Assembly: GCF_003334765.1 (NCBI RefSeq) | Contig: NZ_QOWT01000004.1 | Strand: one strand, 5' to 3' | DNA length: 64,000 nucleotides | Source: Escherichia coli | Lineage (GTDB): Bacteria > Pseudomonadota > Gammaproteobacteria > Enterobacterales > Enterobacteriaceae | Shown: positions 7,215-57,918 of the stretch, in pieces | How the letters are laid out: each line of letters starts with the position of its first letter | Position numbering within the stretch: position 1 is the first letter of the stretch | Made by a program: the position numbers and the translations under genes | Notes under the pieces: generated by a model | What the model was told of the DNA's origin: nothing | Seen by the model: the letters and a program-made list of their open reading frames with translations, nothing else | Database searches by the model: none

Positions 7215-7239
7215 GGATGCGGCATGTGATGCCGCATCC
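7215..7239. terminator. Bidirectional hairpin between convergent pepT and roxA (approx.)
   Basis: Inverted repeat ggatgcggcat-gtg-atgccgcatcc. Confidence 0.55.
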
Positions 7240-8451: not shown

Positions 8452-9912
8452 TTATTCATCTTTCGGCGCAGAATGCTGGCGACCAAAAATCACCTCCATC
8501 CGCGCACCGCCCAGCATGCTCTCTCCGGCGACGATTTTACCCTCATATTGCTCGGTGATTTCGCGGGCTACCGCCAGCCCTACACCTTGCCCAGGGCGTA
8601 AAGTATCAACCCGTTGACCACGGTCGAAAATGACCTCTCGCTTGCTTAATGGAATACCGGGGCCATCATCCTCGACCACAATATAGAGATGCTCGTCGGT
8701 TTGCCTTGCAGAAATTTCGACAAACTCGAGGCAATATTTACAGGCATTATCCAGCACGTTGCCCATCACCTCGACAAAATCGTTCTGCTCACCGACAAAG
8801 CTGATCTCTGGCGAAATATCGAGAGAGATATTGACCCCTTTGCGTTGATACACTTTGTTCAGCGCTGAGGTGAGATTGTCCAGCAGTGGGGCGACCGGAT
8901 GCAGCTCGCGGCTGAGCAATGTCCCGCCGCGCATACTGGCACGATGCAGGTAGTAGCCAATTTGCTGTGAAATGCGGCTGATTTGCTCCAGCATTACCGG
9001 CTCAGCATCACTGACGCTCATCTTTTCACTACGCAGAGAACGCAGCGTACTTTGCAGCACCGCCAGTGGCGTTTTCAGACTATGGGTCAGGTCGGTGAGC
9101 GTCGTACGGTATTTGTCGTAACGTTCGCGTTCACTTTTTAACAATCGGTTCAGGTTTCGTACCAGACTGGTCAGTTCTCGCGTTGTGGCTGGATTGAGCA
9201 ATTCGCGGTTATGTTCTTCCAGTTCGCGGACTTCTTTTGCCAGGGCTTCGATGGGGCGTAAACTCCACCAGGCGGCGACCCACAGCAGCGGGATCACTAA
9301 CAGCAGATTGGCTGAGAGCACATAGATAAACCAGCTCCAGACCATATAGGAACTTTTTAGCTCCACCGGAATGGTATCCACCACCACAATGGTTAATTTT
9401 GGCATCCGCGATGTTGCCGGGTAGACGTTTACTGCCACCGAGTGGGTCATCTCCGCGTCGTCATCATCTTCCCGCACTTCCTGCAACTGTTGCTGTATCG
9501 AATGATCTCCACTCAGCAAGAGGCTGGTATCGTTAACATCCGCTTCAATTTCATGAAAACCATTCGATTTCAGCCAGTCAGGCTGGATCATCTTCATCAG
9601 CCAGGGCACGTCACGTTGCGCCCATAAAAGCTGCCCGTTCTCATCATAAATTAGCGTCATGGTGGGGCTTTGCTTGTCGATATTTTCGGGTAACTCGACA
9701 TGCAACTTATTGTTTTCCCACTTCGCAAGGGTATAGAACAGATTGCTCTCGCCACGTAACAGCCGAAACGTAGTTTTATCGAAACTGACGCTATAACCGA
9801 TCAGCGCGACCATTCCGTAGGCAAGCGAAAGCACCAGTACTACCGCTGCCGTTGCCAACAGAAAACGTACCCGCAGCGAGAGCGGGAAAAAAAGACGCAG
9901 TAATTTTTTCAT
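8452..9912 (-). CDS. phoQ: Sensor histidine kinase PhoQ
   Basis: 486-aa ORF with two TM segments, periplasmic domain and HisKA/HATPase motifs; 1-nt overlap with phoP. Confidence 0.96.
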
Positions 9913-52628: not shown

Positions 52629-54047
52629 TTAACCCTGACGGTTGAAACGTTGCGTTTTAACGTCCAGCGTTAGCGTTTCTTCTGGTTGTATCGCATACAG
52701 TTTCTCACCCTGCTGGCAAATCCAGCCAATCCCCAGTTCACGGGCGATTAGGGCGCTGTGGGATACCGGACTTCCGGCGCTAAGGCAGATACCTTTTACA
52801 ACCGCCGGATCCAGTTGCAGTACTGTGGAAGGATAAATGTTCTCCGCCAGTAGAATAGTTGGCGAGTTAAACTGCGGGAGTTCTTCTTTCGTTTGGGTCA
52901 GGTGGACCAGGGTGCGATGCAGAAGATCGTCCACATCAATATAGCGAGCTTGTAGATATTCATCATCCAGTTGCTGGTATTGCTGGCTAAGTTCTTTAAG
53001 AACTTGCTGCCAGGCATATTCTGCCGTGCAATGTTCATGCTGAAGGAGTTCGCTTGCCGCCGCCAGCAGTTCCGGATCATCTAACAGTGTATGGTGACCA
53101 GAAAAGATTGCGGCAATATCGTCAAGCCCGCTGGCTTCTGCTTTCGCTGTTAACGTCATCAGATCTAATAACGTGAAGTCAATAGCCTGGCGTAATCGAT
53201 CTTGTTCTTCTTCCACGGTCAGGGTTGATTTTGCCTGTACCGTACATAAAACTGGTTGATAATAAAAGGCTTTACCCGAAACAGGCGGAACGGGACGCAG
53301 AGTAGGTGGAGCGACTTCCTCCGTTTCACCAAAGTTATCTTCAGCCAGCTGACGGAAAGCGATCAGTGCCTCTTCAGCTTCTGGCCCTTTCGCAATCAGG
53401 CGCAGCGTATCGTTATAGCGAACTTGTAGTAACGCAATCTGGTTAATACTCTCTGGTGTGACGCATTTGCCGTTTTTTTCCAGCAACATATCGGCATTAA
53501 ATGTCGATAAGGTATAAACCAGCCGGGAGGCCGGACGTACATGCAGGCCGTTACGGTTTTTTATGACCACCGCCAGAGAACGGGCTTCTTCATCGTACGC
53601 AGGACATGTGTCAGAGATTTCAGTGTCGGAGGACGGTAAACCCAGTTGTTCACGTTTGGCTTCCAGCGCATGCATGGCGTCAAAGATAACTTTGTCGATA
53701 TCCGCCCCCGAGGCCGCGCTGACCGTTGCTGCCAGTGTACCTTCGACCAACGGCGCAGCACACAAACGTACTTTTGCGGCGATCTCGGGAGCCAGCAATT
53801 CCAGCGCAGTTTCAGCACTCAATAATGCGCTACCCATATCCATCATGACCAGCACATGGTCGGCATCAGCAACAGATTCGATGGCCTCCATCACTTTGAC
53901 GGCATCGGTACCAATGGGATTTTGTGGATCGTCAATTCCCGCGGCAATGGCGATTTTACAACTATCACTCATTAACATCTGACGGGCTAATTCACCGACA
54001 CCTTCTCCCAGTCGGCTGCTATGTGAAACTATGACCAGGTTTACCAT
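52629..54047 (-). CDS. dhaM: PTS-dependent dihydroxyacetone kinase phosphotransferase subunit DhaM (DhaM/HPr/EI-like fusion; 472 aa)
   Basis: Starts MVNLVIVSHSSRLGEG; multidomain sequence matches DhaM. Confidence 0.93.
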   Translation of the reverse strand: MVNLVIVSHSSRLGEGVGELARQMLMSDSCKIAIAAGIDDPQNPIGTDAVKVMEAIESVADADHVLVMMDMGSALLSAETALELLAPEIAAKVRLCAAPLVEGTLAATVSAASGADIDKVIFDAMHALEAKREQLGLPSSDTEISDTCPAYDEEARSLAVVIKNRNGLHVRPASRLVYTLSTFNADMLLEKNGKCVTPESINQIALLQVRYNDTLRLIAKGPEAEEALIAFRQLAEDNFGETEEVAPPTLRPVPPVSGKAFYYQPVLCTVQAKSTLTVEEEQDRLRQAIDFTLLDLMTLTAKAEASGLDDIAAIFSGHHTLLDDPELLAAASELLQHEHCTAEYAWQQVLKELSQQYQQLDDEYLQARYIDVDDLLHRTLVHLTQTKEELPQFNSPTILLAENIYPSTVLQLDPAVVKGICLSAGSPVSHSALIARELGIGWICQQGEKLYAIQPEETLTLDVKTQRFNRQG

Positions 54048-54057
54048 CACCAATTCC

Positions 54058-54690
54058 TTACTCTTTTGCGGCTAACGCCAACATTTGCATCATAAACATC
54101 ACCGAGGTCGCGCCGGGATCCTGGTGACCAATACTGCGTTCACCGAGATAACTGGCGCGGCCTTTGCGGGCTTGCATCGTAATCGTACTTTGTGCAGCGG
54201 ATTCGGCGATGCTACTGGCAGCTTCGAGCGCCACCGGAACAGAGAGATTTTGCTCGCTGGACTGACGTAACGATTCCACCACCGGCACCCACACATCACA
54301 CATGGTTTTATCGCCAGGTTCGGCTTTCCCGCGACTGATTACGCCGTCCGCGCCATCGCGGAACATCTGATAAAGCTCTTCCAGTGTCAGGCTTTGCCGT
54401 GCCTGGGTCGCCTGTGCGGCGCGGATAAAGAAGGTACCGAACAGCGGACCACTGGCACCACCGACGCTGGAAAGCAGCGTCATACCGGTATTCTTGAGAA
54501 TGAAACCGATATCTTTATCTGCGATAGCAGGGAGTTTTTCCACCACTTTGCTAAAGCCTCGGTTCATATTTAGCCCGTGGTCAGCATCGCCAATTTCGCG
54601 ATCCAGTCCGGTAAGATACTCGCTCTCGGTGCTGAAAATATCGCCACAACGAGTGAGCCAGTTAACAATTTGAGTTCTGCTCAGTGACAT
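54058..54690 (-). CDS. dhaL: Dihydroxyacetone kinase ADP-binding subunit DhaL (210 aa)
   Basis: 236-aa ORF trimmed to MSLSRTQIVNWL. Confidence 0.93.
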   Translation of the reverse strand: MSLSRTQIVNWLTRCGDIFSTESEYLTGLDREIGDADHGLNMNRGFSKVVEKLPAIADKDIGFILKNTGMTLLSSVGGASGPLFGTFFIRAAQATQARQSLTLEELYQMFRDGADGVISRGKAEPGDKTMCDVWVPVVESLRQSSEQNLSVPVALEAASSIAESAAQSTITMQARKGRASYLGERSIGHQDPGATSVMFMMQMLALAAKE

Positions 54691-54700
54691 TGCTTTCTCC

Positions 54701-55771
54701 TTATTTACCCCAGTTAAGGGCCGGGGTGTGAACCGGGGCGTCCCAGAGTGCCAGCGTTTCGTCATCAACTTTCAGTAAGGTGATTGAGAAACCGGTCATA
54801 TCCAGTGAGGTGCAGTACGCGCCAATTAAATTACGTTCGATAGTCAATCCCGCTTGCTGGCAACGTGTGGTCAGGCGGTTATAGACGCCGTACAGCTCAG
54901 AAAGCGGAGTTGCGCCAAGATTGTTAACCAGCGCAATCACCCGATCGCCAGACTGGAGCGGTTGTTTGGTTTGTTGTTCTTCCTGCCAACTGCCTTGTTG
55001 ATAATCCCAGAAACGCAAAGTGCGATGGTATGAGCCATTTACCAGCAGGGTGTCGAACATTTCATCGACGGTTTGATCAAGGGAAGAGAAGGGGCGGCGG
55101 TCAATACCCGGCTCACCATGAATGCCGACGCCAAACTCCATCTCATTATCCGCCAGGGTAAAAGAAGGTTTGCCCGCGGCAGGAACGGTACAGGCACCGA
55201 GAGCGATACCTATTGAGTGGCCTTGATTATTCAGCTTACGCCCCAGTTCCGCACAGGCGTCCAGTGAGTCGCCACGCTCCGCCGCTGCGCCTACGAGTTT
55301 TTCAATTAATACGGTGTTGGCAACGCCGCGTCGCCCGGCAGTATAAAGACTGTCTTTTACCGCAACGTCGTCATCAATGACCACAGTGGTCACTTTTACG
55401 CCGCTATCGTGCAGTAACTCGGTCGCTGTTTCAAAGTTAAGAATATCGCCGGTGTAATTTTTGATAATCAACAGTACACCTTCGCCGCCATCAACTTGCA
55501 TGGCGCATTCAAAGATTTTATCGGGCGTCGGTGAGGTGAAAATTTCGCCCGGACAGGCCCCCGAAAGCATCCCCTGACCGATATAACCACAGTGCATCGG
55601 CTCGTGTCCGCTGCCGCCACCCGACAGCAGGGCGACTTTTCCTTCAACAGGGGCATCAGCTCGGGTGACATACACCGGATCCTGATGCAGTGTCAGCGAT
55701 GGATGCGCTTTCGCCAGTCCTGCCAGTTGTTCGTCCAGTACGTCTTGCACATCATTGATCAATTTTTTCAT
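54701..55771 (-). CDS. dhaK: Dihydroxyacetone kinase dihydroxyacetone-binding subunit DhaK (356 aa)
   Basis: 366-aa ORF trimmed to MKKLINDVQDVLDEQ. Confidence 0.93.
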   Translation of the reverse strand: MKKLINDVQDVLDEQLAGLAKAHPSLTLHQDPVYVTRADAPVEGKVALLSGGGSGHEPMHCGYIGQGMLSGACPGEIFTSPTPDKIFECAMQVDGGEGVLLIIKNYTGDILNFETATELLHDSGVKVTTVVIDDDVAVKDSLYTAGRRGVANTVLIEKLVGAAAERGDSLDACAELGRKLNNQGHSIGIALGACTVPAAGKPSFTLADNEMEFGVGIHGEPGIDRRPFSSLDQTVDEMFDTLLVNGSYHRTLRFWDYQQGSWQEEQQTKQPLQSGDRVIALVNNLGATPLSELYGVYNRLTTRCQQAGLTIERNLIGAYCTSLDMTGFSITLLKVDDETLALWDAPVHTPALNWGK

Positions 55772-55998
55772 TATTTTGCTCCAGCAATTACGGTAGGGCA
55801 TGGATGATGTTCAACGACACGGCGACCACTGACTGCCGATGAATCCATTGTGCATCAGGCAAGGGAAAAGAAAATTAGCCCAAATTATGTTTCATAGTGA
55901 AACATATGCTTTAATGAATGTTCCATATTGAAACTTTTACGTGTATTAATACTTAAAATTGCGAGCCGGAACACCTTTTGTCATAAGGGATGCGGGAT

Positions 55999-57918
55999 AT
56001 GAGTGGCGCTTTTAACAACGATGGTCGGGGCATATCTCCCTTAATTGCAACCTCCTGGGAGCGATGCAATAAGCTGATGAAACGGGAGACATGGAACGTA
56101 CCACATCAGGCCCAGGGCGTGACATTTGCTTCTATTTATCGGCGTAAGAAAGCGATGCTGACGCTCGGGCAGGCTGCGCTGGAAGATGCCTGGGAATATA
56201 TGGCACCGCGAGAGTGTGCGCTGTTTATCCTCGATGAAACCGCCTGCATTCTCAGCCGTAATGGCGATCCGCAAACCTTGCAGCAGCTAAGTGCACTGGG
56301 ATTCAATGACGGCACGTATTGCGCCGAGGGAATTATTGGTACTTGTGCGCTATCGTTAGCGGCTATCTCTGGTCAGGCCGTGAAAACGATGGCCGATCAA
56401 CATTTCAAACAGGTACTCTGGAACTGGGCCTTTTGTGCAACGCCGTTGTTTGACAGCAAGGGCCGATTGACGGGAACAATAGCGCTGGCGTGTCCGGTTG
56501 AGCAAACTACCGCAGCTGATTTGCCGTTGACGTTGGCAATCGCCCGCGAGGTCGGAAATTTACTGCTGACGGACAGTTTGCTCGCTGAAACTAACCGTCA
56601 TTTAAATCAACTTAATGCCCTGTTAGAAAGTATGGATGATGGCGTGATTAGCTGGGACGAGCAGGGTAATTTGCAATTTATTAATGCCCAGGCGGCGCGG
56701 GTCTTGCGCCTTGACGCGACGGCAAGTCAGGGACGGGCAATCACTGAACTCTTAACGTTACCCGCCGTATTGCAACAAGCAATAAAACAGGCACATCCGC
56801 TCAAACACGTAGAAGCAACCTTTGAAAGCCAGCACCAGTTTATTGATGCGGTGATAACCCTTAAACCGATAATAGAAACGCAGGGAACCAGCTTTATTTT
56901 GTTGCTCCATCCTGTGGAACAGATGCGGCAGTTGATGACCAGTCAATTAGGAAAAGTCAGCCATACCTTCGCTCATATGCCACAGGACGATCCGCAAACC
57001 CGCCGCTTGATTCATTTTGGTCGCCAGGCGGCGCGCAGTAGCTTTCCTGTCCTGCTTTGTGGAGAAGAGGGCGTGGGCAAGGCACTGCTAAGTCAGGCAA
57101 TTCATAATGAAAGCGAGCGTGCTGCAGGTCCTTATATCGCCGTCAATTGTGAGTTATATGGTGATGCTGCGCTGGCGGAAGAATTTATTGGTGGCGATCG
57201 CACGGACAATGAAAATGGCCGTCTGAGTCGGCTGGAACTGGCACACGGCGGCACGCTGTTTCTTGAAAAGATTGAATATCTGGCGGTGGAGTTACAGTCT
57301 GCTTTGCTTCAGGTTATCAAGCAGGGGGTTATCACGCGACTGGATGCGCGGCGTTTAATACCAATTGATGTCAAAGTGATTGCAACAACGACCGCGGACC
57401 TCGCAATGCTGGTGGAACAAAATCGTTTTAGTCGCCAGCTGTATTACGCGCTGCATGCATTTGAAATTACCATCCCGCCTCTGCGTATGCGGCGTGGCAG
57501 CATTCCGGCGCTGGTGAATAACAAATTACGCAGTCTTGAAAAACGCTTCTCTACGCGGCTGAAAATTGATGACGATGCCCTCGCTCGCCTGGTTTCTTGT
57601 GCATGGCCAGGCAACGATTTTGAACTTTACAGCGTCATCGAGAATCTTGCTCTGAGTAGTGATAACGGGCGCATTCGCGTCAGTGATTTGCCGGAACATC
57701 TGTTTACCGAGCAGGCGACAGATGATGTCAGCGCCACCCGCCTTTCCACCAGTCTGTCATTTGCGGAAGTTGAAAAAGAGGCAATTATTAACGCAGCCCA
57801 GGTCACAGGCGGTCGCATTCAGGAAATGTCGGCTTTACTTGGGATCGGCCGCACTACGCTGTGGCGGAAAATGAAGCAACATGGCATTGATGCAGGGCAG
57901 TTTAAGCGCCGGGTATGA
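55999..57918 (+). CDS. dhaR: Transcriptional activator DhaR (GAF/PAS, AAA+ domain, Fis-type HTH; 639 aa)
   Basis: 642-aa ORF trimmed to MSGAFNNDGRG; central AAA+ and C-terminal HTH recognisable. Confidence 0.92.
   Translation: MSGAFNNDGRGISPLIATSWERCNKLMKRETWNVPHQAQGVTFASIYRRKKAMLTLGQAALEDAWEYMAPRECALFILDETACILSRNGDPQTLQQLSALGFNDGTYCAEGIIGTCALSLAAISGQAVKTMADQHFKQVLWNWAFCATPLFDSKGRLTGTIALACPVEQTTAADLPLTLAIAREVGNLLLTDSLLAETNRHLNQLNALLESMDDGVISWDEQGNLQFINAQAARVLRLDATASQGRAITELLTLPAVLQQAIKQAHPLKHVEATFESQHQFIDAVITLKPIIETQGTSFILLLHPVEQMRQLMTSQLGKVSHTFAHMPQDDPQTRRLIHFGRQAARSSFPVLLCGEEGVGKALLSQAIHNESERAAGPYIAVNCELYGDAALAEEFIGGDRTDNENGRLSRLELAHGGTLFLEKIEYLAVELQSALLQVIKQGVITRLDARRLIPIDVKVIATTTADLAMLVEQNRFSRQLYYALHAFEITIPPLRMRRGSIPALVNNKLRSLEKRFSTRLKIDDDALARLVSCAWPGNDFELYSVIENLALSSDNGRIRVSDLPEHLFTEQATDDVSATRLSTSLSFAEVEKEAIINAAQVTGGRIQEMSALLGIGRTTLWRKMKQHGIDAGQFKRRV

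Follow-up and report, generated by a model that had tools for sequence, protein, structure and literature searches.

Background

Transcription of the dhaKLM operon of Escherichia coli is reportedly activated from a sigma-70 promoter by DhaR, which is also said to repress its own gene and to have its activity set by DhaL-ADP and DhaK. Two further systems invite comparison at the level of DNA sites. The TyrR boxes, TGTAAA-N6-TTTACA, occur as strong and weak pairs and activate or repress according to the position of the box, and the NtrC enhancer at glnAp2 comprises two dyad sites ~32 bp apart, at -140 and -108. Passages of PMC10084136 and PMC5890353 cite the control that DhaR exerts over dhaKLM and dhaR in E. 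coli. A literature search, outside whose reach Bachler et al. 2005 lay, returned no DhaR footprint, inverted repeat, motif or site sequence.

The dhaK-dhaR spacer

The window, by which is meant the whole 64-kb stretch of E. coli DNA that was analysed, carries dhaKLM and dhaR in divergent orientation with two palindromes between them.

dhaM, 52629-54047, part of dhaKLM (NCBIfam equivalog)
dhaL, 54058-54690, part of dhaKLM (NCBIfam equivalog)
dhaK, 54701-55771, minus strand, first gene of dhaKLM, start codon at 55769-55771 (NCBIfam equivalog, MG1655 annotation)
Site 1, 55886-55906, no strand, nearest dhaK, perfect palindrome TATGTTTCA-tag-TGAAACATA
Site 2, 55918-55936, no strand, dhaK-distal and near dhaR, imperfect palindrome ATGTTCCAtatTGAAACTT
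dhaR, 55999-57918, plus strand, ATG at 55999, encoding GAF, PAS and AAA+ domains, the last lacking GAFTGA, followed by a Fis-type helix-turn-helix (NCBIfam equivalog, MG1655 annotation)

The spacer that contains both palindromes is 227 bp long (55772-55998) and is 100% identical across thousands of complete E. coli genomes. The layout is the same in MG1655, where dhaK is b1200 and dhaR is b1201, the latter annotated as 'dual regulator DhaR'; adding 1,195,067 to a window position gives the MG1655 coordinate. A mechanically compiled list of open reading frames starts dhaK at an in-frame upstream ATG at 55801 (54701-55801, minus strand; 366 aa), whereas the start that agrees with the family model is the annotated one at 55771 (356 aa).

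An earlier sequence-only reading had described two copies of a palindrome between the divergent dhaKLM and dhaR, and both are indeed there, although some of its details needed adjustment. The first copy was called perfect, with 8-bp arms, and placed from 55888; the dyad symmetry is perfect, but the arms TATGTTTCA and TGAAACATA are 9 bp long (55886-55906) and the start given was one base too high, ATGTTTCATAGTGAAACAT occupying 55887-55905. The second copy, described as imperfect, was found as ATGTTCCATATTGAAAC at 55918-55934, and the gap between the copies measures 12 bp rather than the 11 bp reported. The core of site 1 lies at 55889-55903 and reads GTTTCAtagTGAAAC (also written GTTTCATAGTGAAAC), with its centre at 55896, and that of site 2, GTTCCATATTGAAAC, lies at 55920-55934 with its centre at 55927. 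Both the centres and the starts of the two cores are 31 bp apart.

When the pattern of the earlier reading was searched for with up to one mismatch, only these two places in the 64-kb window were recovered, against 0.08 matches expected. Perfect palindromes with arms of 8 bp around a 3-nt spacer are not in themselves uncommon, the window having three compared with 0.94 in shuffled sequences. The other two, at 7218-7236 and 31976-31994, are GC-rich (TGCGGCATgtgATGCCGCA and GACGGGGAgagTCCCCGTC). The significance of the palindromes in the dhaK-dhaR spacer comes from their duplication at 31 bp and their conservation across species.

Conservation upstream of dhaK

A scan with the DhaR N-terminal domain, using one genome per species, yielded 28 loci from Escherichia, Citrobacter, Raoultella, Klebsiella, Enterobacter, Kosakonia, Phytobacter, Pluralibacter, Cedecea, Pantoea, Rahnella, Yersinia and Mangrovibacter, plus one alphaproteobacterium. 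A tandem pair of the core GTTYC-N5-GRAAC, 30-32 bp apart, precedes dhaK in all 26 of the DhaR-linked loci that have dhaK upstream, and sits 110-190 bp ahead of the dhaK start. One locus (L010) keeps a pair before dhaD. No motif was found in the alphaproteobacterial DhaR-like locus (L028) or in L032, neither of which has a dhaK promoter within reach, so that both are uninformative. Exact matches to the core fall in these intergenic regions only; no coding sequence at any locus contains one, nor does the rest of the window.

In orthologous DhaR-linked loci the cores are conserved whereas the flanking spacer diverges. Aligned on the dhaK side, the loci reach 80% consensus only in the two cores, in a T-tract, in a -10-like block and at the ribosome-binding site, and within Escherichia both cores are intact in the different species although the stretch from site 2 to dhaR is heavily diverged. 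Altogether 48 pairs were found in the 268 kb scanned, where ~0.01 would be expected by chance; 25 of them are spaced by 31 bp, 22 by 32 bp and one by 30 bp. Unpaired matches with one mismatch numbered 21 in the same 268 kb, against a chance expectation of 27.6. The 85 distinct sites all have an odd, 5-nt centre, with C at position 5 in 92% and mostly A at the next, which gives the extended form GTTYCA-N3-TGRAAC; the motif frequencies are partly circular at the core positions, as the sites were picked with that same pattern.

These figures bear on whether the palindromes might act as a DNA cruciform or RNA hairpin, or be functionless chance repeats. Single palindromes of this size do arise by chance, and site 1 as single-stranded DNA folds at -6.2 kcal/mol (z = -5.4). 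However, no fold is predicted for site 2 (0 kcal/mol), an Rfam scan gave no match, and the Y/R positions of the two half-sites vary independently, being complementary in 37 of the 85 distinct sites where 48% is expected. Both sites also lie upstream of both predicted start sites, and chance cannot yield 48 phased pairs. A structural or accidental origin is therefore scarcely credible: with half-sites that do not covary, a second site that does not fold and no Rfam match, the two half-sites are read by a protein and not through base pairing.

As to which protein, operators for GlpR, the glycerol-3-phosphate repressor, or for another DeoR-type regulator would be one possibility. GlpR operators, which also occur in tandem, have the form GTTCG-N4-CGAAC, whose centre is even; Zhao et al. 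1994 reportedly gave ATGTTCG as the consensus half-site. Both systems are tied to glycerol metabolism, and the likeness in sequence is limited to the outer bases ATGTT (ATGTTCC/ATGTTTC). The odd 5-nt centre of all 85 distinct sites, with C and then mostly A at positions 5-6, does not agree with the even GlpR centre, and the sites co-occur with dhaR, which makes an assignment to GlpR or its relatives extremely unlikely.

Recurrence across the dha regulon

In most genera dhaD, encoding a glycerol dehydrogenase of 365 aa, is placed between dhaK and dhaR, and where dhaD-dhaR forms an operon a second tandem pair precedes dhaD by ~155 and 187 bp. Six matches with up to one mismatch occur in the 21.6-kb dha cluster of K. 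pneumoniae (L029), and they form exactly three pairs, preceding dhaK, dhaD and dhaB. The third of these lies in the divergent spacer between dhaT and dhaB, ~140 and 171 bp ahead of dhaB, and the 15-bp core of its stronger site is identical to that of E. coli site 1. In a more distant relative (L031, 51% identity) a pair precedes gldA-dhaKLM, with dhaR convergent and ~5 kb away. A plasmid copy of dhaKLM in K. pneumoniae retains the pair despite an IS element just upstream. An Enterobacter plasmid (L035) with two operons of dhaK paralogues and no dhaR has no pair, although this is one control only.

The K. pneumoniae plasmid in question, NZ_CP056373.1 (L034), carries a rearranged dha cluster (positions 825-1124 and 8850-8895 of the locus). 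ISKpn26 is inserted just ahead of the dhaK module, and two more dyad pairs adjoin a separated glycerol dehydrogenase gene. Kosakonia and Phytobacter have one exact dyad upstream of dhaR (L014, 2387-2401; L016, 2386-2400), which is accompanied by a T-tract and a third conserved element, described below, at the usual distances, as if a 31-bp unit had been deleted.

The modules with a single dyad have a bearing on whether DhaR might occupy both E. coli sites but act at each independently, activating dhaK from site 1 and repressing dhaR from site 2 with no cooperativity. Since the modules upstream of dhaR in Phytobacter and Kosakonia hold a single site, one site can persist alone. Against this, the spacing is 30-32 bp in all 48 pairs, including those at dhaD and dhaB, where there is no divergent regulator promoter to repress, and independent action is rather unlikely. 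The three-turn spacing, held constant as it is, favours cooperative binding of DhaR as judged from the sequence comparison, in line with the suggestion of the earlier reading.

Predicted promoter layout and associated elements

Alignments anchored on the dyads identified further conserved elements on either side of the pair.

-10-like hexamer CACAAT, 55847-55852, minus strand (that of dhaK), identified by conservation
T-tract ATTTTCTTTT, 55866-55875, minus strand (that of dhaK), 13 nt downstream of site 1 at the -35 position
Best candidate for the dhaR -10, TAAAAT, 55954-55959, plus strand, read from the sequence with low confidence
Third element CTCGCAAT (plus strand ATTGCGAG), 55958-55965, minus strand, from anchored alignments, K. 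pneumoniae and the plasmid copy

The T-tract is conserved in the dhaK, dhaD and dhaB modules, as seen in the alignments and in the dhaB region of K. pneumoniae. The -10-like hexamer takes the form cAgAAT in most genera and TAcAGT or TAgAGT before dhaD, and in every module its start is 43-44 nt away from the near-dyad centre. On this basis the dhaK start is predicted near 55840, which would put the dyad centres near -56 and -87. At the position aligned to the candidate dhaR -10 other Escherichia have TAAATT, and the -35 region of dhaR would, with low confidence, lie beneath the right half of site 2, with a predicted dhaR start near 55966. A scan of the spacer for consensus sigma-70 promoters and terminators gave no match; the lack of a strong consensus promoter is to be expected where promoters depend on an activator.

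Regulators other than DhaR have been linked to this region. The LysR-type proteins YgfI/DhfA and YneJ/PtrR both gave a ChIP-exo signal at the dhaK promoter (PMC9068703), and one or other of them might bind the palindromes instead of DhaR. Site 1 does hold a generic LysR T-N11-A box, TTTCATAGTGAAA, and a strong site paired with a weaker one recalls the way in which LysR-type regulators combine a recognition site with an activation site. However, the T-N11-A pattern is too loose to discriminate, and the DhfA box predicted in PMC9068703, GATGCACAATGGATTC, maps to 55841-55856 on the minus strand, off the palindromes. Moreover, from genus to genus the motif goes together with dhaR and the dha cluster, and it is repeated ahead of dhaD and dhaB next to dhaR, so that binding of the palindromes by either protein is very unlikely. 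The predicted DhfA box overlaps the -10-like CACAAT of the inferred dhaK promoter, where the box of a putative activator would be oddly placed, and the dhaK promoter itself may account for the conservation at this position.

A gSELEX peak for NtrC, of 40% intensity, has also been placed in the dhaK/dhaR spacer (PMC8743547). It corresponds roughly to window position 55866 (old MG1655 coordinate 1,250,156), the conversion being approximate, and may represent in-vitro cross-binding of a related Fis-type helix-turn-helix protein.

The third element, (C/A)TCGCA(A/T)T, lies 33-38 nt past the centre of the far dyad in dhaK-side and dhaD-side modules alike, and was found at the same offset in loci L001-L027, L029 and L034. 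On the dhaD side it falls within a small palindrome, GGAT-CGCA-ATCC. Two identities for it were considered and rejected: it matches TGRAAC at only three of six positions, which argues against a third DhaR half-site, and it is not conserved on the dhaD side in the form of an outward-facing -10 hexamer. The order of elements at dhaK, dhaD and dhaB is the third element, ~24 nt, the far dyad, 16-17 nt, the near dyad, ~13 nt, the T-tract and the -10-like hexamer.

In most Enterobacterales (loci L007-L011, L015, L017-L027 and L029) dhaD-dhaR stands behind its own dyad pair, which implies positive autoregulation of dhaR in these loci. Escherichia and some Citrobacter are without dhaD and its pair, so that dhaR lies directly next to the dhaK module, with site 2 overlapping its predicted promoter; from the arrangement of these loci, this looks like an evolutionary change from positive to negative autoregulation. 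It is a tentative suggestion that DhaR promoters share a fixed, undescribed composite module at dhaK, dhaD-dhaR and dhaB and that, as part of the same reading, E. coli lost dhaD together with its module, leaving dhaR abutting the dhaK module and its autoregulation switched from positive to negative. Were it true, the rigid geometry of the module would point to a specific route for the activation of sigma-70 RNA polymerase by an AAA+ relative of the enhancer-binding proteins that has no GAFTGA.

The DhaR protein and promoter class

The HTH_8 domain of DhaR comprises residues 588-627. Its recognition helix, IGRTTLWRKMKQ, is almost invariant in Enterobacterales, with minor substitutions in Pantoea and one Citrobacter only, and at the sequence level this fits with the invariant DNA core. 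The GAFTGA motif is absent from 29 of 29 DhaR sequences, which have G..TD.ENGRLSRLE at that position, and no sigma-54 -24/-12 element (TGGYAY-N5-YTGCW) was found in 27 spacers. Membership of the sigma-54 enhancer class was rejected on these two grounds, although the locus does have tandem dyads three turns apart. The missing GAFTGA and -24/-12 agree with a sigma-70 dependence of DhaR activation, which a passage of PMC10084136 cites as published.

Probable operator assignment and proposed mechanism

The proposal that the palindromes are candidate DhaR operators gains strong, if indirect, support from the conserved pairs, their recurrence at dhaD and dhaB and their absence from the locus without dhaR. 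The palindromes also lie in the control region of an operon known to be regulated by DhaR, and their dyad symmetry suits a dimer with a Fis-type helix-turn-helix. Very probably DhaR, encoded next door, has these two palindromes as its operator pair and works by the mechanism set out here. From these sequence comparisons we infer DhaR binding, its cooperativity, the promoter positions and the mechanism of autorepression alike. One DhaR dimer would bind each 15-bp core, GTTYC-N5-GRAAC, through its C-terminal Fis-type helix-turn-helix, site 1 presumably being the strong dimer site and site 2 that of a second dimer. Because the centres are 31 bp apart, or three helical turns, both dimers would lie on the same face of the DNA, where they might form a higher oligomer. 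With the dimers centred near -56 and -87 relative to a weak sigma-70 dhaK promoter, DhaR with DhaL-ADP bound would turn on dhaKLM, and DhaK would silence DhaR. Site 2 would also cover the predicted -35 region of the divergent dhaR promoter, and autorepression in E. coli would result from that overlap.

Comparison with known regulatory systems

DhaR as envisaged here resembles TyrR in being an AAA+ enhancer-binding-protein relative without GAFTGA that acts at sigma-70 promoters through paired palindromic boxes. The two differ in the sequence of the box and the length of its centre, and while TyrR binds amino acids, DhaR senses protein partners through GAF-PAS. That the sites might themselves be TyrR boxes was rejected on comparing GTTYCA-N3-TGRAAC with TGTAAA-N6-TTTACA.

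The likeness to the NtrC enhancer lies in two dyads three helical turns apart, for dimers with a Fis-type helix-turn-helix that oligomerise. NtrC, however, reaches sigma-54 by DNA looping, whereas the DhaR sites are predicted to be close to the promoter, with no -24/-12 element and no GAFTGA.

The closest described case is the E. coli DhaR system itself (Bachler et al. 2005), in which the locus and the regulator are identical to those considered here. The action of DhaR on the dhaK-dhaR spacer was already established, the palindromes are almost certainly an ordinary pair of operators through which a known regulator acts at its known target, and understanding of the DhaR system is unchanged by a definition of the operator. 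What is added to Bachler et al. 2005 is the comparative core GTTYC-N5-GRAAC, together with the findings that it is paired and that it recurs ahead of dhaD and dhaB; the comparative box and the definition of the shared module, with the third element, make up a small and modest addition. A DhaR box and promoter layout backed by conservation at the nucleotide level should be of use for annotation of the dha regulon, and the definition of the box for pathway engineering in Klebsiella and Citrobacter (glycerol, 1,3-propanediol) and for dihydroxyacetone-responsive reporters.
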